The position numbers were made by a program, and so were the translations under genes. A stretch of DNA of 44,578 nucleotides from a phage, in NCBI GenBank assembly GCA_026776125.1, contig GCA_026776125.1_4343.1. The stretch is one strand, 5' to 3'. Below, one piece after another: positions 14,527 through 41,353 of this stretch (within the stretch, counting starts at the first letter, position 1; the number at the start of each line of letters is the position of its first letter). Below the pieces are notes generated by a model, which did no database searches, was not told the DNA's origin, and saw only the letters and a program-made list of their open reading frames with translations.

Positions 14527-14555
14527 ACTATAATAGCTAACTATTCAGGTGTCAA
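14527..14555 (-). promoter_or_regulatory. Sigma70-like promoter, class I (TTGACA-N17-TATAGT)
   Basis: Near-identical to elements at 10959 and 17467; about 65 nt upstream of gene start at 14458. Confidence 0.45.
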
Positions 14556-14803: not shown

Positions 14804-16041
14804 TCTAAATCCTCCTCTGTTACCTGATTCCACTCAGGACGCTTGTCGTCTGCCGTTGCAACACATGGCGCGCCGGGCTTACGAGTAATAAAGTCTTTCA
14901 GTTCTTCTTCCGGTATGACTTTAACAGCTTCGGTAGGTGACATGAGCACTTCTTTAGTCAGCTTGTCGCCGTAGAGTTCTGTTACTTTCTCCGCGTCTTT
15001 CCATGCACGATTACCCGGGCGGCCTTCAACCAACTTGTAACCAGGAACTTTCTTACCTGAATGCAACGCGGCCGCCATAGCTTTCTCAACCTTGTCGATG
15101 TGCTGGCGCAACAGCGGCAACTTCTCATACTCAGCTACGAGTTGCTCCGGCGTCAGTTCCAGCACAAAGTCGTCTTCCAGTTCTTCCGCCAGTACAGAAT
15201 TAACCGTCTTTGTACGCGCAGCGCATTGTTCAGAGAACCGGCACCACTGACAACCATCTACCGATGGCTTGAAGTCCGACGCTTTCAGGTTCTTCTTGCC
15301 ACGGAAATACGCATCAAGCGCTAACAGCGCGCGTTTCTGTGCGAACTTAGCGAACAGTTCCAGTCCTTCAACCGAGATGTCCCACTCTGTCGCGCCCCCA
15401 GCGTAAGGCTGGAAGATGACCAGACGAACGGTTGTTATGTTATAACGTCTCTTGAGTCGACGATAAACACCGAGAGCGTAAAGCATAAGCTGCTTGTTTT
15501 CTTTCGCTTCGACGCGATGCCGCCCGGTTTTCAGGTCGCCGATAATGAGCATGTGCTCGTCGGTGTTTGCCAGTTCCTGGACAGCAACGAGGTCAGCGGT
15601 TCCGAACGTCTCAACGCCTTCATACCCCGGATGCAATACCTCAGTAAGATTGACACGCATTTCCAGCTTGGCGTAAGTCGCTACGTCTATAATCGCTTTG
15701 CAGTAGTCGGTGTACTTGCGCACCTGCTCAATCATGTCCGCCGTAATCAGTACCGCGCCTTTCATCGGGCTGATTAGCGCCTTAATCTGACCTTTGCCTT
15801 CATCCAGTACGTAAGCGCCGACTTCACGCTCCAACGGCAACGCAGTGCCGCGTATATAGGCGTTGAGATGGACCTCAGCTATGGTGTGCATGGCGGTCCC
15901 CGTAACGGCAGCTTTACCTGACGTGTTAGGAATATCTTTTTCACAGGCCAGTGATGCACTGCACGTCAGCCACTTCTTAGCACCTGACGGCGACAATAAG
16001 GCGTGCACATCATTATTGCCACCGCGTTCTTTTAGAATCAT
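14800..16041 (-). CDS. PD-(D/E)xK exonuclease, Cas4/RecB-like with Cys cluster
   Basis: IGDLKTG...QLMLYA nuclease-type motifs; cysteines at N-terminus (LTCSASLAC) and C-terminus (CQWCRFSEQC) suggest an Fe-S cluster; ATG at 16041 preferred over GTG at 16056. Confidence 0.6.
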   Translation of the reverse strand: MILKERGGNNDVHALLSPSGAKKWLTCSASLACEKDIPNTSGKAAVTGTAMHTIAEVHLNAYIRGTALPLEREVGAYVLDEGKGQIKALISPMKGAVLITADMIEQVRKYTDYCKAIIDVATYAKLEMRVNLTEVLHPGYEGVETFGTADLVAVQELANTDEHMLIIGDLKTGRHRVEAKENKQLMLYALGVYRRLKRRYNITTVRLVIFQPYAGGATEWDISVEGLELFAKFAQKRALLALDAYFRGKKNLKASDFKPSVDGCQWCRFSEQCAARTKTVNSVLAEELEDDFVLELTPEQLVAEYEKLPLLRQHIDKVEKAMAAALHSGKKVPGYKLVEGRPGNRAWKDAEKVTELYGDKLTKEVLMSPTEAVKVIPEEELKDFITRKPGAPCVATADDKRPEWNQVTEEDLE

Positions 16042-17466: not shown

Positions 17467-17495
17467 ACTATAATAGCGAACTATTCACATGTCAA
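17467..17495 (-). promoter_or_regulatory. Sigma70-like promoter, class I (TTGACA-N17-TATAGT)
   Basis: Hexamers and spacer nearly identical to elements at 10959 and 14527. Confidence 0.5.
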
Positions 17496-17559
17496 TGGGC
17501 TTTTCTAAAATAATTAATATGGTACTATTCACATATCAACTGACTAAGGAGTAATTGAC

Positions 17560-20108: not shown

Positions 20109-20342
20109 TTATTCCAGGTCTTCTAAAGTGGCTGTCACCCCACGAACTTCGGCAACAGCACTATATCTCCCGCCAACATTTTTCACGACACCAGATTTAA
20201 CCAGCACCTTCAACGACCCTTCAATGATGGCGGAACTATAGTACCTAAAATAACTGCGGCGCAAGTCCATAACGCTGCACGACCCTTTTTTACGTGTTAC
20301 CGAAACAACCGCCGTAAATACGCGTGACTGGAACTCGGTCAT
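20109..20342 (-). CDS. Hypothetical protein (77 aa)
   Basis: ORF with ATGA overlap to upstream HTH gene. Confidence 0.4.
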   Translation of the reverse strand: MTEFQSRVFTAVVSVTRKKGSCSVMDLRRSYFRYYSSAIIEGSLKVLVKSGVVKNVGGRYSAVAEVRGVTATLEDLE

Positions 20343-20533
20343 TTTACATTCTCCTTAATCCACGCTTCTACTTTCTCCGGGTCGAACGTACCAGGCTGCC
20401 GGCGGCCCATAATACGGATACAACAATCCGGGAACTTCCCACTCTTTAACCAGTTATTCAGCGTGCGACGAGTAACCCCGATACGCTCAGCTACCTCATT
20501 CTGTGTCATTCTCAAACCCTCATTATCAGTCAA
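20339..20533 (-). CDS. Small HTH DNA-binding protein
   Basis: VAERIGVTRRTLNNWLKSGKFP HTH-like segment; first gene of leftward operon. Confidence 0.5.
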   Translation of the reverse strand: MTDNEGLRMTQNEVAERIGVTRRTLNNWLKSGKFPDCCIRIMGRRQPGTFDPEKVEAWIKENVK

Positions 20534-20857
20534 CGAAACTTAGTATACATTGCGAATAATGGGAAATCAAACATAATCGCACCTATTGACATTATGAAAA
20601 TCTTCGTTTAAGGTGCTTTTGTATCTTAGTTACTTTGATTCCTGTTCACCTTGTAAAACCGCTTAAAACGCAGCTGCGCGCAGCGCAAGCAAAGTGTTAA
20701 GCGAAAGTTTACTGAACATAAGAATTATCGTAACTTTCCTTCCTAAGTATCTCCGGTTGCCCTGGGCAAGCTCTATTCTCATCGGCAGCATATCTCTTAA
20801 GTATCTGATTTTCTTAATGTGCCGTAGATTCGCAACCGTAAAAATGTAACGATTATT

Positions 20858-20883
20858 GGGCAGGCTTAAGCCTGCCCTTTAGT
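20858..20883. terminator. Perfect 10-bp-stem hairpin (gggcaggctt/aagcctgccc) in divergent intergenic region
   Basis: Palindrome read in sequence; weak T-run after it. Confidence 0.4.
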
Positions 20884-20949
20884 TACCAAGTAATAAGAAT
20901 AAAGGCACAACCCTCCCCGAAGAATCACAACGGCAACGTAACTATTCTC

Positions 20950-20978
20950 TTGCACACCCCAACATAATAGGTTACTAT
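20950..20978 (+). promoter_or_regulatory. Promoter-like element, class II (TTGCAC-N17-TACTAT)
   Basis: Shared with 21751(+), 32092(-), 41325(-); followed by conserved leader CGAAACGAGA and RBS before 21013. Confidence 0.45.
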
Positions 20979-21012
20979 TCACTTATCGAAACGAGACATA
21001 AGGAATTTAGAA

Positions 21013-21750: not shown

Positions 21751-21779
21751 TTGCACACTAGGATAGAATAGACTACTAT
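21751..21779 (+). promoter_or_regulatory. Promoter-like element, class II (TTGCAC-N17-TACTAT)
   Basis: Same architecture as 20950; followed by leader CACGAACGAGAGGAG. Confidence 0.45.
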
Positions 21780-21810
21780 TCATTTACACGAACGAGAGGA
21801 GATACGGAAG

Positions 21811-23582: not shown

Positions 23583-24048
23583 TGGCATCAAATTCACCGC
23601 CGCGTTCGAGGGATTCCGCGGAACCGCGTATCGCGCTACACCGAACGAGAAGTACCTGACTATCGGGTACGGTCACTACGGGCCGGACGTTAAGGCGGGG
23701 CAAACAATCACGCCGGGACAAGGCCTCCTGTTACTTAATCGCGATATGGCTAAAGCCGTAGCTGCGGTTGATGCGGCAGCACACCATTCACTGACACAGG
23801 CACAGTTCGACGCAGTGTGCGACCTGGTGTATAACGCGGGTGCCGGTGTGATTGCCGCTACCACGGGCACAGGTAAGGCGCTGCGTTCTGGTGACATCGC
23901 GACGCTGCGGGCTAAGCTGGCGCTGTTCATCAACCAGAACGGCAAACCGTTACTAGGCCTGCGTCGTCGTACCGCCGGTCGTCTGGCGCTGTTCGACGGT
24001 AAACCGTGGCAAGAGGCTGAGGCTATTGGGCGCGCGGTGAAAGGTTGA
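23560..24048 (+). CDS. Endolysin, T4/P22-type lysozyme (glycoside hydrolase family 24)
   Basis: FEGFRGTAYRATPNE...LTIGYGHYG...FDAVCDLVYNAGAG signature; GTG at 23560 preferred start within ORF-track entry 23509..24048. Confidence 0.8.
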   Translation: MSRNISDNGIKFTAAFEGFRGTAYRATPNEKYLTIGYGHYGPDVKAGQTITPGQGLLLLNRDMAKAVAAVDAAAHHSLTQAQFDAVCDLVYNAGAGVIAATTGTGKALRSGDIATLRAKLALFINQNGKPLLGLRRRTAGRLALFDGKPWQEAEAIGRAVKG

Positions 24049-24114
24049 CACATAAGACTAATCCGACGATACTTAAATCACCTCCTGCTCCATCCCTCTA
24101 CTCTCCAGTTTTAT

Positions 24115-24144
24115 CCCGGCCCTGACCCAGCCGGGATTTTTTTT
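24115..24144 (+). terminator. Rho-independent terminator (cccggc-loop-gccggg + T9)
   Basis: Stem-loop followed by ATTTTTTTTT after the lysis genes. Confidence 0.65.
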
Positions 24145-24166
24145 ATCTATTTTCTGCAATGACTAG

Positions 24167-24195
24167 TTGACTATTATCATCGACCCTATTATATT
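24167..24195 (+). promoter_or_regulatory. Sigma70-like promoter (TTGACT-N17-TATATT)
   Basis: Hexamers with 17-bp spacer, followed by conserved leader CGACAACGAGAG and RBS before 24229. Confidence 0.45.
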
Positions 24196-24228
24196 TACTC
24201 CATCGACAACGAGAGCGGAGTAGAGAAG

Positions 24229-24378
24229 ATGAAAATCACAGATATCGAAGCATTCAAAGACGCGCAACTGATGGCGCGCATCGCCGTTAGCAACCTGAGC
24301 AGTAGCATTCCGGCGGACGCGTTCTGGTTCGCTGCGATGCAGACACTAAAAGCCGCTTATGCAGGAGAGAAGAAATGA
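24229..24378 (+). CDS. Hypothetical small protein (49 aa), not in ORF track
   Basis: Hand-translated; RBS GGAGTAGAGAAG; ATGA overlap with next gene. Confidence 0.35.
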   Translation: MKITDIEAFKDAQLMARIAVSNLSSSIPADAFWFAAMQTLKAAYAGEKK

Positions 24379-24659
24379 CAAACCAACAGTTAATTAGCGC
24401 GGGTTATAGGGTTGTGTCGCGAAAGCATAAGACACTTTCTCGCATAGACCGCGCGGACTGGAAACAGGTGTTGGCTAAACATCAATGCCCGTGGGACGCA
24501 GACGGCGAAGGGATGGAGTGGGTGCTTAATCTAGGTGAGCGCAATTCCGAAGATTATTACAGACGCTGTATAAGTAAGGATATGATAGCTGTTGATGATA
24601 TAAACGGAATCCCTAACAGCGGGAGCGCGGTAACTGGATACATAGGAGAGAAGAAATGA
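24375..24659 (+). CDS. Hypothetical protein (94 aa)
   Basis: ORF with coupled start. Confidence 0.45.
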   Translation: MTNQQLISAGYRVVSRKHKTLSRIDRADWKQVLAKHQCPWDADGEGMEWVLNLGERNSEDYYRRCISKDMIAVDDINGIPNSGSAVTGYIGEKK

Positions 24660-24817
24660 GCGAACAAGGCCAAGTAAGCCAACCATTACGCGTAGGCCGT
24701 AAGGTGAGTCACACCCCGTTCCCGACACGCGAGGAACTGATGAAACGTAACAGTTTCCCTGGGCCGGACAAGAACAAGTATCTCAACCGCATGTGGGGAG
24801 AGCGTAAAAATGACTGA
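24656..24817 (+). CDS. Hypothetical small protein (53 aa), not in ORF track
   Basis: Hand-translated; ATGA overlap with upstream ORF. Confidence 0.3.
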   Translation: MSEQGQVSQPLRVGRKVSHTPFPTREELMKRNSFPGPDKNKYLNRMWGERKND

Positions 24818-24995
24818 CCGTGAATATGAAAAGATGATGGTAGAGGCCGTTAACGGCGGCGTAGACATTAGCCACGTGATGTGCGTCCTGAATAATAAAA
24901 TCGCGGTAGCCGAGCAAATGGTGGAGTCGCTTTATGAGACGCGCCGCGAACTGATTAACCGCTTCAACCTGAACAAAGGTGACACCAATGCCTAA
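24810..24995 (+). CDS. Hypothetical protein (61 aa)
   Basis: ORF in early block. Confidence 0.4.
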   Translation: MTDREYEKMMVEAVNGGVDISHVMCVLNNKIAVAEQMVESLYETRRELINRFNLNKGDTNA

Positions 24996-25287
24996 AATCA
25001 CAATTGCATCGCTCGAGCGCCGTATTATGGTGCTTGAGTCGGAGAAACAGACGTTAGGCGGGCAACTGTCAATTAACGGTGAGTTTCAACTGGAGGCGTA
25101 TAAAGAACTTCTAGAGGCGTTTAAAGAGCTACAAGCCATCGCGTCTGACATAGAAAATATGATTGGATTGTTGCAATCCGGGGAGTGGGCCGAACACTGC
25201 ACTAAATCGGTGTTAGGAAAACGGCTTGAGACGGAGATTACTGACATGCTGAGTTGTCTTGTTGAGGCGCCAGATGAGCACGCCTGA
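24979..25287 (+). CDS. Hypothetical protein (102 aa)
   Basis: ORF in early block. Confidence 0.4.
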   Translation: MTPMPKITIASLERRIMVLESEKQTLGGQLSINGEFQLEAYKELLEAFKELQAIASDIENMIGLLQSGEWAEHCTKSVLGKRLETEITDMLSCLVEAPDEHA

Positions 25288-25456
25288 GCCGGTAGTTATC
25301 GATGGCGTCCTGTGGAAACCTTACTCGGTTAACCACATCGACGCCGATGGGAAGAAGTTCAGTTTCTACATTTTTGCGATTAGCCGTGAGCACGCTGCGT
25401 GTGTAGTAGACGATATACGAGAAACGGCGTGGCTTGGCGATGAGATAGTGGGGTGA
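25259..25456 (+). CDS. Hypothetical protein (65 aa)
   Basis: ORF in early block. Confidence 0.4.
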   Translation: MLRRQMSTPEPVVIDGVLWKPYSVNHIDADGKKFSFYIFAISREHAACVVDDIRETAWLGDEIVG

Positions 25457-25686
25457 GAGCATGAGTCTTGAGGTTGTTATAAGTCTGGTTGGTCTTAGTT
25501 ACTTCATTGGGCTATTGGTCGGTTTTCTGTGGGGTAGATACTAATGTTCAGCGACATCAACGCAGCAATCGAAGAAGCAATCTGGCGCCGTTACAACGGC
25601 GAGCAGCAACGGCACTTCTGCCTGGTGCAACGCGGCAACATGGTCGCCGTGGTGCAGGACCGCGATAACAAATATCCGAATGCGAT

Positions 25687-25947
25687 GTGGACGACGAGGA
25701 ATTTCTTAGGATGATTACCAGCATTCCTAACCTTATTAAAGAATTTGGCACGATGGCGGAGACGTGCCGACAAACAGGCCTCAACGAAATGACGATTGCT
25801 AAGTACAGTAAAGACGTTGATTGTGAGCGCCACGTAATTTATAACAATCGTCTGATGACGCACGTTAAGACTAGCCCGGTGTTATTCACGCGCCGTGGTA
25901 TCACTAAAACTGAGCAACGTATTGCTAAAGAGGAGAGTGGAGAATGA
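25687..25947 (+). CDS. Hypothetical protein (86 aa)
   Basis: ORF in early block. Confidence 0.4.
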   Translation: MDDEEFLRMITSIPNLIKEFGTMAETCRQTGLNEMTIAKYSKDVDCERHVIYNNRLMTHVKTSPVLFTRRGITKTEQRIAKEESGE

Positions 25948-26099
25948 AAAAGTTAACTATCTACTGGAAAACAGGGGCTACGTCAGAACTCGATGTTTTC
26001 AGCGTAACGCAGTGTGAAAAGTTCTGGTATGCCGAAACATTCAACGGTGAAGTGAGAATACCAATCGCACTGGTAGACGGCGGCGATATAACAGAATAA
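25944..26099 (+). CDS. Hypothetical small protein (51 aa), not in ORF track
   Basis: Hand-translated; RBS AGGAGAG; followed by terminator. Confidence 0.3.
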   Translation: MKKLTIYWKTGATSELDVFSVTQCEKFWYAETFNGEVRIPIALVDGGDITE

Positions 26100-26110
26100 C
26101 CAACCCACAA

Positions 26111-26132
26111 GCCCTCTACGGAGGGCTTTTCT
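26111..26132 (+). terminator. Rho-independent terminator (gccctc-tacg-gagggc + TTTTCTG)
   Basis: Stem-loop plus T-run at end of early block. Confidence 0.6.
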
Positions 26133-26226
26133 GTACATCCCGCCCAATACCCTTATATAATCCATTTAGACGCGTAGGGCGCGTCTGGTGCGCTCTGATG
26201 GTCAGACGCATATGCAAGGGGATTCT

Positions 26227-26772
26227 ATGAAGCTGAAACTCAAGCAGCCATCGCCAGAGGTGGTGCAAGCTGCACATGAAGAAGCTGTTAGCGCAAACCG
26301 TCGCCGTAGACGACCGCGCGGCAAACAGAGCCTTTATCAATCATCCCGTAATTCCGCCGCGTTGTGGGACCCGGACTATTGCGACGCTTTAATCGAGTTC
26401 TTCGACCGCACGTCATGGGAGCTTGTGCCTACGTCTAAGGGTGACGAACGCCCGCTGATTCAGGATAAACCACCGTCACTGGCCCGCTTCGCCTTACACA
26501 TCGGAGTCACTATCCCGATTATTAAGCTTTGGCTGCGTGAGATTCCCGCATTTGCAGAAGCCTATGAAACGGCGCAGGCGCTGGAAGAGGCGTACTTCAC
26601 CGAGACAGGGGCTGCGGGCATCTCGGCTACGTTTGCCGCGGCTAAACTGGGCCTCAGCAAAGAGAAACCGGTTGCATCCACCGAAGAACCAGCACCGACT
26701 GAGATTGTTTTCAGTGTTGCGGAGCCTGTAGGTAAAATCGTAACAACGAACATGGGTGAGGTGGAGGAATGA
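26227..26772 (+). CDS. Putative terminase small subunit
   Basis: Immediately upstream of and coupled to terminase large subunit; basic N-terminal region; ATG at 26227 with RBS AAGGGGA. Confidence 0.45.
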   Translation: MKLKLKQPSPEVVQAAHEEAVSANRRRRRPRGKQSLYQSSRNSAALWDPDYCDALIEFFDRTSWELVPTSKGDERPLIQDKPPSLARFALHIGVTIPIIKLWLREIPAFAEAYETAQALEEAYFTETGAAGISATFAAAKLGLSKEKPVASTEEPAPTEIVFSVAEPVGKIVTTNMGEVEE

Positions 26773-28019
26773 GTATTCAGCTATCCGCACCACAGGCACT
26801 GTTCCTGAATTGCGATAACAAATACAAGGCCTATGTCGGAGGCTTCGGTAGCGGCAAGACATTTGTCGGCTGTCTCGACCTGCTTACGTTCATGCTCCGG
26901 AACCCGGGTACCCGCCTGGGCTACTTCGGCCCCACCTACCCGGCTATCCGCGACATCTTCTACCCGACATTCGAGGAAGCGGCTAACCTCCTCGGCCTCG
27001 ATGTGCTGGTTAAATCTGGCGACAAAGAAGTCGTGGTCACTCGCGGTAAGACGGTGCTCGGAACTGTTATCTGCCGCTCGATGGATAACCCCGGCTCGAT
27101 AGTCGGCTTCAAAATCGCGGCTGCGGTCGTGGATGAGCTGGACGTATTGAGCCGTGAGAAAGCCGAGCTGGCGTGGAACAAAATCGTAGCCCGCATGCGT
27201 CTGGTTATCCCGGGGGTAATTAACCACATCTCCGTCACCACGACTCCGGAAGGGTTCAAGTTCGTTTACGCCAAGTTCAAGGAGAACCCGACGCCGAGTT
27301 ACTCAATGGTGCAGGCGTCCACTCACGAGAACGCCAGATTCCTGCCGCCGGATTACATTAGCTCGCTGACTGAGACTTACCCGGCGCAACTGATTAACGC
27401 GTATCTGAACGGTGAGTTTGTCAACCTGACATCCGGAAGCGTGTATTACGCATACGACCGACGCAAGCACCGCAGCAAAGAGACAATTCAACCGGGCGAC
27501 ACGCTGTACATCGGGCAGGACTTCAACGTTACGAAGAACGCCAGCGCCGTGTATGTGCAGCGTAAAGATGGATGGCACGCGGTTGCCGAACTGAAGGGCC
27601 TGTTCGATACGCCGGACACCGTGCGCGTAATTACCGAGAAGTGGAAGTCACAAGGCCACCGCATCGTCGTTTACCCCGACGCTAGCGGCAAGAACCGTAA
27701 GACAAACTCGGCGTCAATCTCTGATATTGCATTACTCCAGCAGGCGGGTTTCGATGTTCGCGCTAAATCAGCCAACCCCCCGGTTAAAGACCGCGTTTTA
27801 GCCGTGAACACCGCGCTGGAAAAAGGTAAGCTGTGGGTTAATGACCACTTATGTCCTGAGATAGCCAAGACGCTGGAACAGCAGGCATACGACGATAACG
27901 GAGAGCCGGCTAAAGACGGCGTCATTGACCATATGGCTGATGCTCTCGGCTATCCTGTAGTTTATGAGATGCCGGTGGTTAAACCAGTAATCAACATCCC
28001 GGTGACTTTCGCACTTTAA
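26769..28019 (+). CDS. Terminase large subunit
   Basis: Walker A YVGGFGSGKT near N-terminus; size and position before portal. Confidence 0.8.
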   Translation: MSIQLSAPQALFLNCDNKYKAYVGGFGSGKTFVGCLDLLTFMLRNPGTRLGYFGPTYPAIRDIFYPTFEEAANLLGLDVLVKSGDKEVVVTRGKTVLGTVICRSMDNPGSIVGFKIAAAVVDELDVLSREKAELAWNKIVARMRLVIPGVINHISVTTTPEGFKFVYAKFKENPTPSYSMVQASTHENARFLPPDYISSLTETYPAQLINAYLNGEFVNLTSGSVYYAYDRRKHRSKETIQPGDTLYIGQDFNVTKNASAVYVQRKDGWHAVAELKGLFDTPDTVRVITEKWKSQGHRIVVYPDASGKNRKTNSASISDIALLQQAGFDVRAKSANPPVKDRVLAVNTALEKGKLWVNDHLCPEIAKTLEQQAYDDNGEPAKDGVIDHMADALGYPVVYEMPVVKPVINIPVTFAL

Positions 28020-28031
28020 GAGGATTATTAA

Positions 28032-29501
28032 ATGTTAACTATGAACGGTCAGAATCAGGGTGTTAAGACAAAACACCGGGAATGGCTGCATCACTTCGAT
28101 AAATGGCAGAAGGTACGCCACGCGCTGGAAGGCGACCTTATTCGCTATCTGCGCAACGTCGGGAAGAACGAACCTGACCCGACCTACGCAGCCCAGCGCC
28201 AGGAAGAATACGAGAACGGTGCTATCTGTTACAACTTCACTAAACGTACCCTGGCGGGGATGACGGGGTCAGTGATGCGCAAAGACCCTGAGCAGATTAT
28301 CCCGCCTGAACTTGAGTACCTGTTGCACAACGCTGACGGTTCGGGTGTAGGGCTGTGGCAGCACGCGCAGGATACGTTAATGGAGATTGACTCGGTGGGT
28401 CGTGGCGGGTTGCTGGTGGACGCCCCGGAGACAGCCGCGGCAACGGCAGCCGAACAGAACGCGGGGTTACTAAACCCGGTCATTGCATTCTACACTGCTG
28501 AGAACATCATCAACTGGCGACTGACCCGCATCGGCTCAGTGAACCGTGTGACGATGGTTGTATTGCGTGAGGCATGGGAATACTCGGAACCAGGCGCTGA
28601 GTTTGAAACAAAATTCGGCGAGCAATACCGCGTCCTTGACCTGATTGACGGTCGCTACCGCCAGCGCATCTACCGCTTCGATGCCGAAGGTGGCGCACAG
28701 GATGAAGTAATCGAAATCTTCCCGGAACTCGGCGAACAGTTGCGCGGTAAAATCCCGTTCACGTTCATTGGCGCAAGCAACAACGACGCCACTATAGACG
28801 ATGCGCCTTTACTGCCGTTAGCTGAGCTAAATATAGGACACTTCAGAAATTCGGCCGATGTGGAAGAGGCCAGCTTTATAGTAGGTCAACCGACACTGTT
28901 CATTGCCCCCGGCGAGAACATGAGCATGGAGCAGTGGAAAGAAGCCAACCCACACGGCATACGCATGGGGTCGCGTTCAGGCCACAACATCGGCTCCGGC
29001 GGAAATGCGTTTCTGGTTCAGGCGGCGGAAACTAACCTCGCCAAACAGAATATGCTGGATAAAGAGAATCAGGCCATCCAGATTGGCGCGCAGCTTATCA
29101 CCCCGACGCAGCAAATCACCGCGGAATCGGCCCGCCTGCAACGCGGCGCCGACACGTCAGTCATGGCAACAATAGCACGTAATGTAAGCATGGCGTATAC
29201 CGATGCGTTGCGCTGGGTTGCGGGTATGCTTGGGCTTAGTGAAGATACTGAGATTGAATTCAAGCTGAACATGGAGTTCTTCCTGCAACCGATGACAGCT
29301 CAGGACCGCGCTCAGTGGATGGCGGACATTAACGCAGGCCTGCTACCAGCTACTGCTTACTACGCCGCGTTGCGTAAGGCTGGCGTAACCGACTGGACCG
29401 ATGAAGACATTCAGAACGCTATTGGGGACGCACCGCTGCCGTTGGGTGCGGTTGCTCAGGTAGCAGGAGAAATTCCGCAGTCCTCGCAACAACAGGAGTA
29501 A
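28032..29501 (+). CDS. Portal protein
   Basis: 489-aa ORF directly after terminase large subunit; synteny and size. Confidence 0.65.
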   Translation: MLTMNGQNQGVKTKHREWLHHFDKWQKVRHALEGDLIRYLRNVGKNEPDPTYAAQRQEEYENGAICYNFTKRTLAGMTGSVMRKDPEQIIPPELEYLLHNADGSGVGLWQHAQDTLMEIDSVGRGGLLVDAPETAAATAAEQNAGLLNPVIAFYTAENIINWRLTRIGSVNRVTMVVLREAWEYSEPGAEFETKFGEQYRVLDLIDGRYRQRIYRFDAEGGAQDEVIEIFPELGEQLRGKIPFTFIGASNNDATIDDAPLLPLAELNIGHFRNSADVEEASFIVGQPTLFIAPGENMSMEQWKEANPHGIRMGSRSGHNIGSGGNAFLVQAAETNLAKQNMLDKENQAIQIGAQLITPTQQITAESARLQRGADTSVMATIARNVSMAYTDALRWVAGMLGLSEDTEIEFKLNMEFFLQPMTAQDRAQWMADINAGLLPATAYYAALRKAGVTDWTDEDIQNAIGDAPLPLGAVAQVAGEIPQSSQQQE

Positions 29502-29506
29502 ATAGA

Positions 29507-29532
29507 AAGGCCCCGCTAGGGGCCTTAGTTTT
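29507..29532. terminator. Bidirectional hairpin terminator (aaggcccc-gcta-ggggcctt)
   Basis: 8-bp stem between convergent genes (portal + and 29531..30184 -). Confidence 0.6.
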
Positions 29533-30184
29533 AACGTATATTAGCCGCACATTTACGCACAACCCGAGGTATCGCCTCTTTCAGTTCACCCCATGTATTA
29601 ACGGCCTCCATGTCAAGAAGCGTCACCAGAGCTTTCTGGATGTCACTTCGCAACTGATTGGTCTTCGCATCCTGAGAGTCCCATGTATCGAAACCCGTTA
29701 CGTCGCGGATATCTACGGATTCCTTTACCGCTTTAGCCACCTGTATGAAGTGTCCACTGTGGCCAATTCTTCCCTCCGTGCGCTCGATCATTCGACTAAC
29801 GGCAGCGTTAAGCTCGACAAAGCTCACCGCGCCAATGTTTCGTAGTTCTACCTGCCGTTGTGTGATAAAGCGGTCGATAACGAGGAAATGGAAATAGGCG
29901 CTGTATTGCTCAGCAATATATACTGCCAGATGGAGACATGCAAAGGTGCGACCGTTTCGGCCTTTCGTCGCCCTTATGGCATTCTCGATTCCGAGTTGTT
30001 TTTCGCATTCCTCCTTGAAAATCTTGAAGCCATCCGTTGCCATGACCTGGCGAAGCTCTCTGGCCCCCATGCCGTTGTCTAAACGCCAACGGTTCATCTG
30101 GTCAACCAGCTCGTTTACGTTAATAAAGTTTTCACGGTCAAAAGTGATTTCTCCATAAGGGAACTCTAATGTTTGCAGTTTCAT
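29531..30184 (-). CDS. KilA-N-like domain protein (moron on opposite strand)
   Basis: N-terminal region ending GRTFACLHLAVYIAEQYSAYF resembles KilA-N domain signature; unknown C-terminal domain. Confidence 0.4.
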   Translation of the reverse strand: MKLQTLEFPYGEITFDRENFINVNELVDQMNRWRLDNGMGARELRQVMATDGFKIFKEECEKQLGIENAIRATKGRNGRTFACLHLAVYIAEQYSAYFHFLVIDRFITQRQVELRNIGAVSFVELNAAVSRMIERTEGRIGHSGHFIQVAKAVKESVDIRDVTGFDTWDSQDAKTNQLRSDIQKALVTLLDMEAVNTWGELKEAIPRVVRKCAANIR

Positions 30185-30210
30185 GTGTATTTCTCCTGTT
30201 TAAGTGTACG

Positions 30211-30240
30211 TTTAAATTCTACATTTGAATGTAGAATTTA
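30211..30240. promoter_or_regulatory. Perfect 13-bp inverted repeat with 4-bp spacer (TTAAATTCTACAT-TTGA-ATGTAGAATTTAA); putative operator
   Basis: Verified by reverse-complementing; lies 27-56 nt upstream of start of 29531..30184. Confidence 0.5.
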
Positions 30241-30326
30241 ATCAAGCTCTTTTTAACCTTAAATGCGTATGATTATGCCAATACGTTACCGACTGATATG
30301 ATTGTCATATCGAAACAGGAGGGTAT

Positions 30327-31370
30327 ATGAGCTTACTGACATCACTAATCAGCCACCAGATTTGGCTGCAACGCACCGCATCTGGTGAAGTGAAAGACCT
30401 AGCACCGTTCATTCAGGAGATGCGGGACGAAATAAAACGTCAGGTGCTGTTATTCGGTGACGACGGGCGAAGCACTGCCCGACTGAATAAATTGTTACGC
30501 GACCTTGAAGAAGCACTGGTGGGGCTTACGGGCGACTGGCAGACAAAGCTGACAGAAGACCTTAAGGAACTGGCGGCGTATGAGGCTGAGTGGAACGTAA
30601 AGACACTGACCGCCAACGTAGACGCGGAATTTGTTACGCCTACCGCTGAGCAGGTATGGGCCGCTGCCGAGTTTCAACCATTATCATTGAGCGACAAGCC
30701 CGTTGATTTCACCAAGCTGATGTCTGGATGGGGTGAAACGGAAGTAGCACGTCTTGTAACTGGAGTTAAGATGGGCTTTGTGCAAGGTCAAACCACACGG
30801 CAGATTGTTAAGAATGTTGTTGGCGCTGGTGGACTAGCCGACATCTCAGAACGTAACGCGACTACGGTAATCCGCACCGCGCTGTCCCACGTATCCAACG
30901 AGGCCCGTAACGAGACGTACCGCCAGAACGACGACATCATCGAGAAATATGAGTGGGTGTCAACTTTGGACAGCCGTACCAGCACGATTTGCAGGGCCAG
31001 AGACGGAATGACGTGGGAAATCGGTAAAGGTCCGATGCCACCAGCCCATCCTAATTGCCGAAGTACCACTGCACCGGTAATCAGTTCAGAGTTCGACTTC
31101 CTTGATAAAGGCGCAAAACGTGCGGCTAAGGGTGCGGACGGCGGTACTCAGGTAAGCGCAGACACCACCTATTACGAGTTCCTGAAACAACAACCAGCAT
31201 GGTTTCAGGACCAGGCGCTCGGTCCTGTTCGTGGTAAGATTTTCCGTAACAGCGGTATATCGCCGGAAGAGTTTCGCGTAAAATCTGTAGATGGTTTCGG
31301 GAATCCGCTTACGCTTAAGCAGATGGCGGAACTCGATAAACGTGTTGCTGATTATCTGAAAGGGGATTAA
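30327..31370 (+). CDS. Putative head morphogenesis / minor head protein
   Basis: 347-aa ORF following portal; assignment by synteny. Confidence 0.4.
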   Translation: MSLLTSLISHQIWLQRTASGEVKDLAPFIQEMRDEIKRQVLLFGDDGRSTARLNKLLRDLEEALVGLTGDWQTKLTEDLKELAAYEAEWNVKTLTANVDAEFVTPTAEQVWAAAEFQPLSLSDKPVDFTKLMSGWGETEVARLVTGVKMGFVQGQTTRQIVKNVVGAGGLADISERNATTVIRTALSHVSNEARNETYRQNDDIIEKYEWVSTLDSRTSTICRARDGMTWEIGKGPMPPAHPNCRSTTAPVISSEFDFLDKGAKRAAKGADGGTQVSADTTYYEFLKQQPAWFQDQALGPVRGKIFRNSGISPEEFRVKSVDGFGNPLTLKQMAELDKRVADYLKGD

Positions 31371-31831
31371 TGATGGGCTTTTTCAAAGTAACTGATGTGC
31401 CGTCACGTCGCGTAGTCCAGTACGCTCGGGTGTCTGGCTCCGGTGAGAACGTAACCTACGTTGAGGATGAAAGTGTACTAGGTACACCTGTAGACGAGAT
31501 GCCGTGCGCAGACAAGACAGGTATCGCACTCTCTGCCGCTGGTATGCTTTATGAAATTCCGTATCTGGCGGACGCTGGTGACGTGTATCTCTCTGCGCAA
31601 CCGCAGGACGCTGAACTGGCGGGCGGCAGCGCAACCATCACTGTCGAGGTTAAGGCAGGCAAAGCGCCGTATTCTTCGACCTGGTACAAAGACGGTAAGG
31701 AAGTGGTGAATGTGCCTGAGGAGTCTCTGTCTCTGACGGTTAATGCGGTCGGCGAATACTTCGTTAAAGTTACTGATGCCGATGGAGTAGAGGCGGTAAG
31801 CAAAGCGGCGAAGGTTACTAAGCCAGAATGA
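31370..31831 (+). CDS. Ig-like domain protein (possible head decoration/accessory)
   Basis: C-terminal region (ATITVEVKAGKAPYSSTWYKDGKEV...GEYFVKVTDADG) parallels Ig-like domain of 34833..35174. Confidence 0.4.
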   Translation: MMGFFKVTDVPSRRVVQYARVSGSGENVTYVEDESVLGTPVDEMPCADKTGIALSAAGMLYEIPYLADAGDVYLSAQPQDAELAGGSATITVEVKAGKAPYSSTWYKDGKEVVNVPEESLSLTVNAVGEYFVKVTDADGVEAVSKAAKVTKPE

Positions 31832-31834
31832 TAA

Positions 31835-31862
31835 AAGGCCCCATTATGGGGCCTTAGTTTTC
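31835..31862. terminator. Bidirectional hairpin terminator (aaggcccca-tta-tggggcctt)
   Basis: 9-bp stem between convergent genes. Confidence 0.55.
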
Positions 31863-32064
31863 AACGGAATCTTGTGTTTAAATCCTGCTCATGGACAACC
31901 CTCAGAACAGTGTCATAATCCCCGTATCTTCCAGGTTCAAATATATCTAATGCCTTGTAAGCAGACATTGCGTCAGGGAAAACCTGCAGAACCTTTTTAA
32001 CCCGGCACAAGTCACCGTCGAACTCTTCATCGAACTCTTGAACTACTTCGCAAATTGCATACAT
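31861..32064 (-). CDS. Hypothetical acidic protein (67 aa), opposite-strand insert
   Basis: ORF with RBS AGGAGG, driven by class II promoter element at 32092. Confidence 0.45.
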   Translation of the reverse strand: MYAICEVVQEFDEEFDGDLCRVKKVLQVFPDAMSAYKALDIFEPGRYGDYDTVLRVVHEQDLNTRFR

Positions 32065-32091
32065 TTTTCACCTCCTGTTTAAGTTAACTGA

Positions 32092-32120
32092 ATAGTACCC
32101 TATTATATTGGGGTGTGCAA
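32092..32120 (-). promoter_or_regulatory. Promoter-like element, class II (TTGCAC-N17-TACTAT on minus strand)
   Basis: Near-identical to 41325(-) and 20950(+). Confidence 0.5.
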
Positions 32121-32395
32121 ACTATTTATTTACGTATTCCAGTTATTCCTCCGAATTGTAAATGTTGGAATAAACTATTCGAATAGTTGACTTTTCACTA
32201 AAAATATGATAAGCTCCACCTGAGCTTGTGAAGTATGAACAAGCGACCGCGGCGCGGGCAGGTAACGGAGCGGGACGTAAGTCCTGAGTGTAGTTACGCT
32301 GACGCGTTCGGAAGGGCCATACTCTATTGCTTGTGTAAAAAGTAACTGGTTTACTGAGATTACGCCGTTTCTATGTTTAAATGATAAGGACTAGC

Positions 32396-32418
32396 GCCCC
32401 GCTTTATGGCGGGGCTTT
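32396..32418 (+). terminator. Rho-independent terminator (gccccgc-tttatg-gcggggc + TTT)
   Basis: 7-bp GC stem plus T-run, 20 nt before Rz start. Confidence 0.5.
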
Positions 32419-32439
32419 ACTTATCGAGAAAGGGGAAAC

Positions 32440-32826
32440 ATGAATCTTAAAGCAACTGTCGTAGCAGGAGCATGTTTCATCATCCTGGTTTACGCACACG
32501 GCATCTACCAGTATCGCAGCGGATGGAACGAAGGCCGGGCTAATCTCGTTTCGCAGCAACAGCAGAAAGCACAGACTGAGTTAGCGAAGAAAACACAACG
32601 GCAGCAGCAGGATGAATCGAAGGCCGCCGCCGCTGACAACGAAGGCAAGACGAAATCAGAGGTGATTATCCGTGAAGTCGTTAAGTACATTAAAACGCCT
32701 GGTCGCAGCGTGTGCACTTTTGACGATGCTCGCGTCCTGCTCAAGTCCCGCGCCGTCGCCAACGCCAATTCCATCCCCGGATACGACGATGATGCAGCCG
32801 CCGTGCAAGCTGGCGCCACCAAGTAG
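32440..32826 (+). CDS. i-spanin (Rz-like)
   Basis: N-terminal transmembrane segment (ATVVAGACFIILVYAHGIY) followed by Q/K/E-rich predicted coiled coil. Confidence 0.6.
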   Translation: MNLKATVVAGACFIILVYAHGIYQYRSGWNEGRANLVSQQQQKAQTELAKKTQRQQQDESKAAAADNEGKTKSEVIIREVVKYIKTPGRSVCTFDDARVLLKSRAVANANSIPGYDDDAAAVQAGATK

Positions 32827-32935
32827 TGACGCGGACGAGGATTTAGCTATCGACGTTCAGAACGCCGAATGCGTACGGCAACTGAGACTGAAAGTGTTCA
32901 TGTTGCAGGATTACGTGAGGAATATTCTGGAATAG
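32672..32935 (+). CDS. o-spanin (Rz1-like lipoprotein) overlapping Rz in +1 frame
   Basis: Signal peptide with lipobox LASC, proline-rich mature region (SPAPSPTPIPSPDT); starts inside Rz and extends past it. Confidence 0.6.
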   Translation: MKSLSTLKRLVAACALLTMLASCSSPAPSPTPIPSPDTTMMQPPCKLAPPSSDADEDLAIDVQNAECVRQLRLKVFMLQDYVRNILE

Positions 32936-33017
32936 TTGCCTTGCATGTTGGAATAATTTATTCTTGACATGTAAATCCGGGTGGCCCGGATTCCAACGTC
33001 CAGGGGACATACTGACT

Positions 33018-33719
33018 ATGAATCGTTTTTTACGTTATCCGTTCCAGGAAGAAGCTGGAGCAGAAGATAAAGCTGGTGGCGGTGACGCTCCTAAAATGTT
33101 CACCGCTGAAGAAGTTCAGGCGCTGATTGAGAAAGAAGTTGCCGGGCTTAAGGCCAATCAGGAAGCATTGCTGGCGGAGAAGAAAGAAGCCGCCCGTAAA
33201 GCAAAAGAGGCCGAAGAAGAACGGCAGCGCGCGCACCAGGAGGCGTTAAAAGCCGCTGGTAAGATGGATGAGTTCGAAAAGACGATTCGTAGCCAGTATG
33301 ACCCGGTGTTAGCCGAGAAAGACGGTCGCATCTCCAGAATGGCAGAGCGTATCCTCGGCAGCGAACGTAAAGCGGTGCTAGGCTCTTTCGCGGGTGACTT
33401 TATTACCCCAGAAGCAGTGGACATTCTTGCGCCGTTCGTTAAGACTGAGTTCGAAGGCGATGATGTGGTTACTAAGTTTGTTGGTGCAGACGGTAACGTA
33501 ATCACGACTGACCCGGAACAGTTCCGCAAATACCTGCGCGAACACAAGGCGTTTTCGCATTTGATCAAAGCAAATGCAGCTTCCGGCGGCGGGGCTTCCG
33601 GTAGCAAAGGCGGCGGGGCCGCACCAGCGTTTAAAGACATGAGTGAAGCAGAGCGTTTAGCCCTGTATAAATCGAACCCTGCCGAATTTGAACGGCAACT
33701 TAAAGCCCTGAGGAAATAA
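33018..33719 (+). CDS. Putative scaffolding protein
   Basis: Charged, alanine-rich coiled-coil-like sequence directly upstream of major capsid gene; ATG at 33018 preferred over ORF-track start 32964. Confidence 0.55.
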   Translation: MNRFLRYPFQEEAGAEDKAGGGDAPKMFTAEEVQALIEKEVAGLKANQEALLAEKKEAARKAKEAEEERQRAHQEALKAAGKMDEFEKTIRSQYDPVLAEKDGRISRMAERILGSERKAVLGSFAGDFITPEAVDILAPFVKTEFEGDDVVTKFVGADGNVITTDPEQFRKYLREHKAFSHLIKANAASGGGASGSKGGGAAPAFKDMSEAERLALYKSNPAEFERQLKALRK

Positions 33720-34771: not shown

Positions 34772-34787
34772 GGTTAAGCTATAATCG

Positions 34788-34811
34788 AGAGGGACTTCGG
34801 TCCCTCTTTTC
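34788..34811 (+). terminator. Rho-independent terminator (agagggac-ttcg-gtccctct + TTTTCATTT)
   Basis: Perfect 8-bp stem plus T-run after capsid gene. Confidence 0.65.
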
Positions 34812-37274: not shown

Positions 37275-37687
37275 TGGGCTACTTTGAGGACTTAACAAAA
37301 GCGTTTGATGTGCCGCTGGTAGCCTTCGGAACCGCCAACGGCATCAAGGTCGCGCTTGAAAACATCGACGCGCCGACGTCAACCGATACGCCGTATCTGG
37401 CGAGTTACATGCTACTAGCGGATACCGAGCAGGCTGATTTGTTCTTTACGGAACAACGCTCTGGTATTTATCAGGTCGACATTAACTACGCATCGGCGAA
37501 AGGTAGCGCGGAAATCAATAAAATGGCAGACTTACTTAACACGGCGTTTAAAGCAGGTAAGTCATTTTCACGTAACGACATCTGCGCCGAGGTTCAATCG
37601 GTTAGCCTGGGGCCGCTGATTGTAGAAAACGTATGGGCCAAACGGCCATTGTCAATTAACTTTATAGCATTCACCAAGAGGCTGTGA
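37271..37687 (+). CDS. Putative tail terminator protein
   Basis: Synteny, immediately before major tail protein. Confidence 0.3.
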   Translation: MMGYFEDLTKAFDVPLVAFGTANGIKVALENIDAPTSTDTPYLASYMLLADTEQADLFFTEQRSGIYQVDINYASAKGSAEINKMADLLNTAFKAGKSFSRNDICAEVQSVSLGPLIVENVWAKRPLSINFIAFTKRL

Positions 37688-37689
37688 AT

Positions 37690-38856
37690 ATGGCTACAAC
37701 TCCTTTTAAGGGCGCGAATACCGCGCAATTCTATGTGGCGGAAGTGACCCCGGGCGTAACACCGGCTAACCCGGTATGGTCGCCGTTGCGCAACACGGGC
37801 GGCGTTCCTGCCATTACCCGCGACACGCTGACCTCCAACGAACTCGACGGCAGCCGTGAAACTACATCCATCCGCACCGGTAACAAACAGGTTAGCGGTG
37901 AATACGCAATTGAGCTTAGCTCTAAAAGCCAGGATGACTGGTTGGCAGGTGCTTTAGGCTCTACGTGGCAATCCGGTGTTTCTCTGTCAGGACTATCGAT
38001 CACCGTCGCACCCGCGGGCAAGACGTTCACACGCGCTACCGGCAGTTTTATCACTGACGGAGTTGGGGTAGGCGACCTGATTGCGTTTACCGACTTAACA
38101 GGCGATAACGCAAAACCATTTATTGTTACCGCAGTAACGGCTACGGTTGTTACTGGTGCGGGCATCCAACACACCCTGACCACCGAGACAAAAACTAGTA
38201 AGGCTAAAACTGGCGACACGTTGGAAACCGGTAACACGTGTAAGACGTTCTCTATCCTTACCTGGTACAAAGGCCAGTGCGGCGGTACTGACGCGTACAC
38301 GTTAACCAAAGGCGTGGAAGTTTCTGGTTTTACCATCGAACAGGCTGTTAACGCGATGGTAACTGGCAGCTTCCCATTCATCGGTCGCAGTCAGGAGATT
38401 CTCACTACGCCGCCGACCGGTTCCAACTTCTCATCTGTTACTTTTGGTGATGAGCCGTTCTCTTCGGTTGACGTTTCCGTGTTCGACGGCTCTACGCCGT
38501 TGCGTTGCGACAGTCTGACTATCACCAACGATAACAGCGCGTCCGCGCAGTTTGAACTTGGTAACACTAACGTAGCGTTTGTGGAGCGTAGCCGTGCAGC
38601 TAACACCTTCTCCATCTCCGGTAAGCTGTATGACATGGCGATGATTCAGAAGTTTATCAACGAGCAGCAGGTAGAGATTAACTCTATTCTGGCAGGGGTA
38701 AACGGGGCTATGTCTTTCAGTTTGAAACGTGCAGAGCTTACGGCGGTTACACCTGAGATTGGTGGGCCTGAGTCAATCACTCAGTCCATTGAAGGCCAGG
38801 CTACCGGCAATCAGTACCAGTCGTCTATCGTAATTCAACGTATCACCTACGCATAA
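37690..38856 (+). CDS. Putative major tail protein
   Basis: 389-aa ORF preceding the chaperone and tape measure genes; RBS AAGAGG; followed by strong terminator. Confidence 0.5.
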   Translation: MATTPFKGANTAQFYVAEVTPGVTPANPVWSPLRNTGGVPAITRDTLTSNELDGSRETTSIRTGNKQVSGEYAIELSSKSQDDWLAGALGSTWQSGVSLSGLSITVAPAGKTFTRATGSFITDGVGVGDLIAFTDLTGDNAKPFIVTAVTATVVTGAGIQHTLTTETKTSKAKTGDTLETGNTCKTFSILTWYKGQCGGTDAYTLTKGVEVSGFTIEQAVNAMVTGSFPFIGRSQEILTTPPTGSNFSSVTFGDEPFSSVDVSVFDGSTPLRCDSLTITNDNSASAQFELGNTNVAFVERSRAANTFSISGKLYDMAMIQKFINEQQVEINSILAGVNGAMSFSLKRAELTAVTPEIGGPESITQSIEGQATGNQYQSSIVIQRITYA

Positions 38857-38860
38857 AACT

Positions 38861-38886
38861 AAGGCCCCTTTCGGGGCCTTTTTCTT
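38861..38886. terminator. Bidirectional hairpin terminator (aaggcccc-tttc-ggggcctt + TTTTCTT)
   Basis: 8-bp stem between convergent major tail gene and minus-strand cassette. Confidence 0.65.
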
Positions 38887-41283: not shown

Positions 41284-41324
41284 GGTGTAGCTCCTGTTTG
41301 GGATAACATCGTTGGTGTAAGTGA

Positions 41325-41353
41325 ATAGTACACTATTATATTGGGGTGTGCAA
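41325..41353 (-). promoter_or_regulatory. Promoter-like element, class II (TTGCAC-N17-TACTAT on minus strand)
   Basis: Near-identical to 32092 copy; about 40 nt upstream of 41283 start. Confidence 0.5.

Follow-up and report, generated by a model that had tools for sequence, protein, structure and literature searches.

A conserved promoter and a candidate structured RNA upstream of the spanin gene Rz in a Kagunavirus phage

In a phage contig of 44,578 nucleotides (nt) (NCBI GenBank assembly GCA_026776125.1, contig GCA_026776125.1_4343.1; hereafter, the window), the 375 nt directly upstream of the spanin gene Rz (positions 32065 to 32439) are poor in open reading frames (ORFs), which raises the question of what this stretch is for. 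A previous interpretation of the bare DNA (the sequence-only reading) had suggested a regulatory leader or a small RNA controlling late or lysis gene expression, and the features that it listed were all found, at or no more than 1 to 2 bases from where it had placed them. Its treatment of the region as one unit needed revision, since we could distinguish three layers: a variable insert (32065 to 32134), a conserved promoter (32136 to 32215) and a structured RNA (approximately 32222 to 32439). The left 70 bp belong to a separate, leftward promoter, and the remainder is a module of promoter and RNA. That this module is noncoding and acts at the RNA level was borne out: its ORF is unconserved, its fold covaries, and it has a conserved promoter on the 5' side and a terminator-like hairpin on the 3' side. 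We therefore present the RNA (below, the element) as a candidate new structured RNA family, apparently a promoter-proximal phage leader or terminated RNA. The window belongs to Kagunavirus (Guernseyvirinae). Around the element, it shares 99% identity with Escherichia phages 590B and NTEC3, and hundreds of Kagunavirus and Jerseyvirus records match it.

Relatives of the element were collected from GenBank phages and from 78 IMG/VR loci reached via the capsid protein, and in five lineages it was found directly upstream of Rz, in the same orientation. The sequences fall into type A (Kagunavirus and part of Jerseyvirus, with L026 and L027 as variants), type B (SETP3 and wast), type C (phiEap-2 and four metagenomic contigs), type D (a short form in Tsm2) and type E, in which a different 5' half is joined to a type C 3' half. 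The 5' domain begins with a small hairpin, P1 (32224-29 / 32239-44), which starts at position +3 of the predicted transcript, and continues into a long rod consisting of P2' (32247-49 and 32251-56 with 32303-11), an outer P3 helix (32259-66 with 32293-97 and 32299-301) and an inner P3 helix (32271-76 with 32281-86) closed by a GUAA loop, followed by an unpaired, conserved tail, AAGGGCC (32312-18). Using a covariance model (R1) built from type A with a hand-set structure, we aligned 32 distinct sequences under guidance of the model; 95.7% of the cells form standard pairs, versus 30 to 41% when the partners are slid by 1 to 3 columns, the fairer comparison because an alignment fitted to a model favors its structure. 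Changes on both sides were seen in 17 of the 29 pairs. Covariation analysis across relatives, one of the checks that the sequence-only reading had named, thus supports the fold. Within the rod, pair 32253:32306 is CG in 17 sequences, UA in 12 and AU in 2, with one exception, and because of this covariation P2' is preferred over a local hairpin. That hairpin, P2 (CCGC-GGC-GCGG), is invariant, hence untestable, and was set aside in favor of P2' for types A and B; type C may use a local GNRA hairpin instead. The internal-loop purines, the tandem G-U pairs and the tail are nearly invariant, which points to a tertiary fold or to binding of a partner.

The R1 model matched type B (E values of 1e-8 to 1e-5), phiEap-2 (E = 0.08) and a second copy of the element that some phages carry (copy 2, described below; 1e-13 to 1e-21) but missed Tsm2 and the four metagenomic contigs of type C, whose assignment comes from nhmmer/MAFFT alignment only. 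Taken together, these comparisons place the element in Kagunavirus, Jerseyvirus and phiEap-2; its presence in Tsm2 is supported by sequence alignment only. An Rfam 15 search of positions 31500 to 33300 (E values up to 10) returned only generic terminator look-alikes far below gathering scores, and no homologue turned up in 5,426 complete Escherichia coli genomes. Nor is the RNA described in the few Guernseyvirinae papers that we found, which are genome announcements plus one transcriptome sequencing (RNA-seq) paper. Compared with Salmonella phage ER11, the window is 95 to 100% identical over the element, 77 to 90% over the Hoc-like gene and 60 to 90% over distal Rz, scaffold and capsid genes. 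Selection as the sole cause of this extreme conservation was rejected, because part of it reflects cassette exchange (ER11 is SETP3-like from mid-Rz on and Kagunavirus-like upstream); within the transferred block, the RNA is nevertheless the best-kept part, above the cotransferred Hoc gene.

Could the region simply encode a small basic protein (MNKRPRRGQVTERDV...)? The sequence-only reading had noticed a short ORF without a convincing ribosome-binding site, and such an ORF does exist, although it comprises 36 codons plus a stop rather than the 35 codons at 32236..32343 first given. Bas70-76, KMB35, TU03 and others carry it as an annotated hypothetical protein, and most type A sequences have it intact. 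Among the relatives, however, it is cut to 9 codons (K1ind-type phages) or 17 codons (L012), is frameshifted by 1-nt indels in L026, reads through its stop in L025 and L030, and lacks a start codon in L027 and in types B, C and D; in phiEap-2 and Tsm2, no ORF of at least 20 codons exists anywhere in the region. The substitutions keep base pairs, not the reading frame, no Shine-Dalgarno (SD) sequence precedes the ORF, and the ATG lies within the P1 loop. Conservation as a protein, which would have spoken against a noncoding role, was thus not seen; judging by these comparisons the ORF is not a gene, and we consider a translated product barely credible.

The RNA lies behind a predicted host-type promoter, whose pattern, T(T/A/G)GACT-N17-TGnTA(A/C)(G/C)CT, recurs in types A, B and C (more than 40 distinct sequences) as well as in copy 2, with a spacer of varying sequence and a fixed distance from promoter to P1. 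TTGAC begins at 32187, exactly as previously noted, and the site has the TGn of an extended -10 element, A2 and T6 of the -10 hexamer and a -35 element at 17 bp; its activity is a prediction. An automatic promoter scan overlooked it, with TAAGCT scoring 3/6. A local agctc/gagct hairpin, also listed previously, was found (32212-32216 / 32222-32226), but it overlaps both the -10 hexamer and the predicted start and therefore lies mostly outside the RNA.

What had been called a promoter-like repeat is, in our view, of a different nature. The 12-mer ATGTTGGAATAA indeed occurs at 32162-32173 and, as an exact repeat, at 32945-32956, but it reflects a GGAATA-N3-TATTC box shared with the scaffold promoter, with the conserved promoter described above adjoining it, and this box is probably a regulator site rather than a promoter hexamer. 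Similarly, the 12-bp palindrome CTATTCGAATAG (32175-32186) is there but forms the core of a longer, 16-bp perfect palindrome. None of these features is significant singly: exact 12-mer repeat pairs number 151 genome-wide versus approximately 65 in shuffled windows, 12-bp palindromes 11 versus approximately 13 and 16-bp palindromes 3 versus 0.67, and the 12-mer shows no enrichment when two mismatches are allowed, so that the 12-mer repeat and the 12-bp palindrome stand at chance level. Significance comes instead from the fact that promoter, GGAATA boxes and RNA fold are conserved or covarying among relatives. Of the 12-mer, only GGAATA(A) is kept, not the ATGTT part; the GGAATA-N3-TATTC box is retained in types A to C, and the 16-bp palindrome in type A only. 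Counting both strands, the box has 7 matches in the genome versus 0.5 expected, at four loci (15929, 32167/8, 32950/1 and 35384/5); it is exact only at 32167 and 32950, with 1 mismatch at 15929, and the 35384 match was rejected as a third site, being an overlap of SD sequence, stop and start.

The second exact box (GGAATA-ATT-TATTC, 32950-63) spans the spacer and the -10 element of the scaffold promoter. Because the box is common to both loci, the 12-mer repeat can be understood as reflecting a common regulator site, and the Rz and scaffold promoters probably share a candidate GGAATA-box operator. A Pfam scan of ten Bas70 proteins yielded two small helix-turn-helix (HTH) proteins (families HTH_3 and HTH_17), which are the obvious candidates for a box-binding protein; they are the Cro-like HTH_3 protein and the product of 20339..20533 in the window. 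The scaffold transcript has a 5' hairpin of its own (AAUCCGGG-UGG-CCCGGAUU, 32974-92), preceding the scaffold SD sequence and ATG (33018). Its core, CCGGGTGGCCCGG, does not vary across types A to D (CCGGGUGGCCCGG is the same in Kagunavirus and as far afield as Serratia phage Tsm2), whereas covariation (AAU/AUU, ACA/UGU, G/C) is seen in the outer stem; this hairpin may be an mRNA stabilizer or a translational operator.

Downstream of the 5' domain, an A+U-rich linker leads to an extended hairpin close to the Rz start, and a promoter scan of the plus strand from 32322 to 32440 found no further promoter-like site. The conserved blocks of the linker are common to copy 1 (the copy upstream of Rz) and copy 2a and, in part, to type B. 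One of them could form a tentative helix, P4 (GUUUCU 32367-72 / GGAAAC 32434-39), in which a U-A pair is flipped to A-U in type B; it is perfect in copy 2a and absent from copy 2c. The idea that P4 traps the ribosome site was not upheld, since the helix is present in copy 2a, where Rz does not follow, and absent from copy 2c. The terminator proposed before Rz was recovered by a terminator scan (stem 32396-32415, tail TTTACTTATC). Its arms, GCCCCGCU and GGCGGGGC, form 8 pairs (7 of them G-C) around a 4-nt loop and are followed by the tail UUUACUUAUC (32416-25); the fold is calculated at -21.5 kcal/mol (z = -4.8), and in the window the G+C stem-loop is followed immediately by a U tract, as in intrinsic terminators. 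Compensatory changes in the stem are seen in L045, in L035 and among type A and type B sequences, and between the two types the outer stem covaries (UAUACG/CGUAUA in type B). The canonical form holds for this lineage, not for types B, C and D: the U tract is good in type A only, weak in type B (tail UUAGCGUAU) and missing from types C and E, and Tsm2 has no hairpin. To judge from this comparison, the conserved property is a stable hairpin before the spanin ribosome site, and efficient termination is plausible in this phage only. The coordinates are collected in Table 1.

Table 1. Features of the studied region and of related sites (window coordinates, except for copy 2, which is located on the relatives' sequences)
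Feature	Coordinates	Strand	Remarks
Leftward sigma-70 promoter, TTGCAC-N17-TACTAT	32085..32120	-	One copy of the ~36-bp promoter family; predicted to drive a 67-aa accessory gene (31861..32064)
TATTCC-AGT-TATTCC direct repeats (GGAATA boxes)	32136..32150		Putative upstream regulatory site; kept in types A, B and C
GGAATA-AAC-TATTC inverted repeat (32167-32180) overlapping palindrome AACTATTCGAATAGTT (32173-32188)	32167..32188		Candidate operator/activator site just 5' of the -35 element
Predicted sigma-70 promoter	32187..32215	+	-35 TTGACT 32187-92, N17, extended -10 TG 32207-08, TAAGCT 32210-15; predicted start near G32222
5' RNA domain	32222..32322	+	P1 hairpin, long rod and tail; minimum free energy fold is the same structure (z = -2.6)
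36-codon ORF	32235..32345	+	"Hypothetical protein" in some relatives; judged not to be a gene
A+U-rich linker	32323..32382	+	Conserved blocks TCTATTG (32323-29) and GTTTCTATGTTT (32367-78)
Extended 3' hairpin	32383..32425	+	GAUAAG/CUUAUC (32383-88/32420-25) closes G+C stem 32396-32415
Rz ribosome-binding site AAGGGG (32430-35) and start codon (32440-42)	32430..32442	+	24 nt from hairpin to Rz ATG
Sister site: GGAATA-TTCT-GGAATA (32919-34) and scaffold promoter TTGCCT (32936-41)-N17-TATTCT (32959-64)	32919..32992	+	Conserved in types A to D; the GGAATA repeats mirror those at 32136-32150
Early-slot cassette	20534-21012		Promoter TTGACA-N17-TAAGGT at 20586; ~250 nt without annotated gene; terminator at 20858; family promoter at 20950
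Copy 2 of the element	L105 11815-11917(-); L137 12247-12349(-); L149 8508-8610(+); L152 2544-2646; L153-L156		

In the nearly identical phage Bas70, the gene order is terminase, portal, head morphogenesis, Hoc-like gene, the studied region, Rz/Rz1, scaffold, major capsid protein and head-tail and tail genes; according to its annotation, holin and endolysin genes lie outside this cluster, leaving only the spanins directly 3' of the leader. The Rz1 frame (32672-32935) begins within Rz and extends 109 nt beyond the Rz stop, and its annotation is inconsistent among relatives (264 nt versus only the final 144 nt). Farther along the plus strand, strong terminators are found at 34787-34808, right after the major capsid gene, and at 38861-38880, after the tail-tube region; the distal late genes therefore need read-through. 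The genome also encodes a T7-like replisome (a gp2.5-like single-stranded-DNA-binding protein, a family A DNA polymerase and a helicase-primase).

The window holds one copy of the element. A pattern scan of IMG/VR combined with the model revealed contigs with two copies approximately 11 kb apart, and a second, diverged copy is likewise carried by approximately 20 Kagunavirus phages in GenBank (phiEc3/4, fFiEco02/03, GZMU_E2010, Golestan, G AB-2017 and 22664BS2 among them) out of approximately 180 element-bearing records. In copy 2, the promoter recurs but lacks the GGAATA boxes, and the 5' domain recurs with additional compensatory changes. This copy occupies a divergent control region that has an HTH regulator gene reading leftward on one side and the rightward early operon on the other; behind it come another hairpin and, after that, a promoter of the ~36-bp family described below. 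The link to lysis that the sequence-only reading had drawn is therefore only part of the picture: the module does sit before Rz, but in some relatives the same promoter and RNA also head an early operon, and a role in late or lysis gene expression is something that we infer from position alone. Since copy 2 replaces the 5' part of a resident early cassette, the 3' blocks of which persist in two-copy phages, promoter and 5' domain appear to be a swappable module, and since copy 2 of GZMU_E2010 is the variant seen as copy 1 in L026, exchange between the loci is indicated. Comparison among relatives, in sum, shows a noncoding and folded RNA with a conserved promoter, its spread through the family and its modular duplication.

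In the window, the early slot is occupied by the resident cassette, which shares blocks with SETP3 (37520-37850), contains two unconserved-looking ORFs of 42 and 51 codons and ends in a canonical terminator, GGGCAGGC-TTAA-GCCTGCCC-TTTAGTT (20858). Rfam gave no match for 20534-21012, and the cassette is probably another undescribed phage RNA. A stretch of this early-slot RNA, CUUUCCUUCC (20734-20743), is complementary over 7 bp to GGAAGGG (32310-32316) of the element, as is the case in SETP3 (CUUUCUUCC); the complementarity is weak and could be due to chance. In Golestan-type phages (L154-L156, copy 2c), the early leader contains a CTCA microsatellite of 3 to 7 units.

How, then, might the element work? 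The noncoding transcription unit is the only visible route by which RNA polymerase could enter the spanin genes, and our preferred reading, to which we assign a chance somewhat short of even, is that its fold acts in cis. The host-type promoter (TTGACT-N17-TGaTAAGCT) would start RNA near 32222, and the GGAATA/TATTCC boxes would let a phage DNA-binding protein time the Rz and scaffold promoters. The first 100 nt would fold at once into the small hairpin and the irregular rod with its GNRA loop, leaving the purine tail AAGGGCC free, and would be followed by the A+U-rich linker and the stable extended hairpin, which has terminator form in this phage. Most polymerases would stop at that hairpin, yielding a stable RNA of approximately 200 nt, and those reading through would make the Rz/Rz1 message. 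By setting transcription past the hairpin and later terminators, the fold might act through attenuation or through protein-independent antitermination in the manner of the put sites of phage HK022; the released RNA may additionally act in trans. Start site, termination, read-through and action in cis are thus what we infer. We favor cis action because the element is promoter proximal everywhere, heads two operons in some genomes and has terminators (34787 and 38861) downstream of it. In types C and D, moreover, no canonical terminator precedes Rz, and the RNA is therefore physically the spanin 5' untranslated region there. A more specific version, in which the element is a put-like, processive antitermination RNA that needs no protein, is unrelated to HK022 put in sequence, and has been fused to its own promoter into a swappable unit heading the late (Rz-scaffold-capsid-tail) operon and some early operons, strikes us as improbable; if it were true, only polymerases from this promoter would ignore the terminators at 32396, 34787 and beyond.

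Several observations weigh against action in cis. When types A and B were inspected, no conserved antiterminator that could pair with the hairpin's 5' arm came to light. A search of the HK022 immunity region (positions 24000 to 32000, both strands, filters off) with the covariance model gave as its best match an A+T-rich stretch with 7.8 bits and an E value of 0.21; the model was built from the element rather than from put, and where the put sites lie in this stretch was not established. Among ten Bas70 proteins of unassigned or regulatory kind (not all genes) that were scanned against Pfam, none belonged to the Q family, and the only Kagunavirus RNA-seq paper that we found gives gene-level results. 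Scaffold and major capsid genes have their own downstream promoter and are therefore leader independent, so that an effect in cis would chiefly concern Rz/Rz1. In this phage the unit resembles a stand-alone small-RNA gene, as does the early cassette, whose downstream genes have their own promoter, and this look of both units favors a product that acts in trans. The high conservation of unpaired nucleotides, finally, is as compatible with a bound partner as with a switch in cis.

Indeed, a stand-alone, trans-acting small RNA of approximately 195 to 205 nt, with the unpaired UUCGGAAGGGCC, the internal-loop purines and the linker binding host or phage RNA or protein and read-through into the spanins being incidental, is the most serious alternative, possible although on the unlikely side. 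Promoter and canonical terminator are both there in this phage, the unpaired sequence is near-invariant across hosts, two copies per genome are reminiscent of many small-RNA paralogues, the early slot holds cassettes of promoter, RNA and terminator, and even a partner could be proposed in CUUUCCUUCC, with the caveat already given for its 7-bp match. In types C, D and E, however, no canonical terminator follows the RNA; the element is never an orphan nor reversed but always heads an operon; its U tail is interrupted and paired with the upstream strand, which is atypical of Hfq-dependent small RNAs; and no target was found, exact complements of the tail occurring in the genome at chance level. 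That E. coli genomes hold no homologue counts against it as well.

Two further alternatives seem to us less probable still. The invariant loop and junction nucleotides, the covarying helices and the tandem G-U pairs form a pattern typical of aptamers, and a leader that senses a ligand or a protein (riboswitch-like or a translational operator) could tune the spanins with the hairpin and GUUUCU/GGAAAC as its expression platform: the hairpin and the possible helix enclose the SD sequence and spacer, and in type C an anti-SD sequence, UCCCUC, pairs with GAGGGG. This we regard as quite unlikely, given that Rfam offers no match, that the same 5' domain heads an early operon without the Rz ribosome site, that P4 is absent from copy 2c with no alternative pairing conserved and that, from general knowledge, tight control of spanins answers no obvious need. 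It is more doubtful yet that the transcript primes or opens a replication origin, as an R-loop or primer RNA like those of T7 and T4 origins or ColE1 RNA II. The T7-like replisome genes, the order of promoter, G+C-rich folded RNA and A+T-rich stretch, and the location of copy 2 in the divergent control region adjoining the helicase-primase operon, at the genome's GC-skew minimum (near 20 to 21 kb in window coordinates), would all suit an origin. At 32.2 kb, in contrast, there is no GC-skew extremum; the universal copy 1 sits amid the head-gene cluster, copy 2 being limited to approximately 20 of the approximately 180 records, and the fixed position relative to the Rz start would go unexplained.

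The leftmost layer of the region has a history of its own. Positions 31861 to 32134, which hold the 67-aa gene and its promoter, are a variable insert that separates the Hoc terminator from the element. Some relatives have nothing there, and others have an endonuclease, a DNA methylase or a sliding-clamp-like gene; K1ind2 and ER11 lack the 67-aa gene with its promoter, and in TU03 and PK1 an endonuclease gene takes their place. By this comparison, the site is an insertion hot spot. The promoter of the insert belongs to a family of approximately 36 bp, copies of which self-BLAST located at 32085-32120(-), 41318-41353(-), 20950-20985(+) and 21751-21786(+), with partial copies near 17469-17531 and 14529-14548. 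Each of the aligned copies is followed by an SD sequence and a gene, and their consensus, TTGCACACCCCAAyATAATAGnnTACTATTCAnTTA, includes a conserved spacer, which suggests a bound regulator. In published genome notes, which also give ARNold terminators, these sites figure as seven PHIRE "phage promoters" and are ascribed to a phage polymerase; the annotations of Bas70 and SETP3 contain no phage RNA polymerase gene, and we consider the family to have been wrongly ascribed. The GenBank record of phage wast places a minus-strand tRNA-Ser (L007 732-809) across the end of the Hoc-like gene and its terminator, apparently by a false call. ARAGORN detected no tRNA or transfer-messenger RNA in the window.

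Among phages infecting E. coli and Salmonella, those of Kagunavirus and Jerseyvirus are some of the most often isolated; they are therapy candidates, and they time their transcription without a polymerase of their own. In their head-gene region, no non-protein feature is more conserved than the element, which has been misannotated as a protein in several GenBank records. Should it act in cis, it would represent a second, independent case of RNA-only control of phage transcription elongation and the first in a virulent siphovirus; should it act in trans, it would be a new phage small RNA common to several host genera. In either case, it is a compact object of approximately 100 nt that comes with natural compensatory variants.

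Among known systems, hairpins processed by RNase III (of the T7 R1.1 type) recall the rod of approximately 23 bp with its asymmetric internal loop and upper stem, and the second long hairpin before the ribosome-binding site; the helices of the element are interrupted more often, however, and RNase III recognition leaves the conservation of its unpaired bases unexplained. Origin transcripts (T7 primary origin, T4 oriF/oriG and ColE1 RNA II) share the succession of promoter, folded RNA and A+T-rich stretch, in a phage with a T7-like replisome and with copy 2 beside the replication genes where it occurs, but the element locus shows no skew signal, its position is fixed relative to Rz and an R-loop is hypothetical.

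The put RNAs of HK022 suppress downstream terminators in cis and depend on the zinc-binding domain of the RNA polymerase beta' subunit. In that phage, putL and putR head two operons (PMC9378689). The element resembles them in architecture only: it starts a few bases from a predicted sigma-70 start, has two stem-loop units with bulges and internal loops, heads two operons as two copies in some genomes, is followed by terminators (32396, 34787 and 38861), and has no dedicated protein in evidence. It differs in showing no homology of sequence or structure, in measuring approximately 90 to 100 nt rather than approximately 70, and in belonging to virulent Guernseyvirinae rather than a lambdoid phage, with most genomes holding a single copy; antitermination here would be an analogy. 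In the PR'-6S-tR' unit of lambda and in StxS of Stx phages, a strong promoter, a leader of approximately 200 nt and an intrinsic terminator precede the lysis and late genes, and the terminated leader is a discrete RNA. The window matches this layout with its promoter (32187-32215), a leader of approximately 200 nt, a hairpin (32396-32415) with U-rich tail and the Rz ATG (32440). In the early transcribed region, a candidate for a -10-like pause element, AAGTAT at +10 to +15, is seen in type A but does not recur in L027, copy 2a or type B. Unlike in lambda, only spanins follow, not holin and endolysin. The leader is also highly structured and covarying, which is not a known feature of 6S or StxS. 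Although homology tests failed for both, it is lambda PR'-6S-tR' or HK022 put that the layout of this unit appears to be most like.

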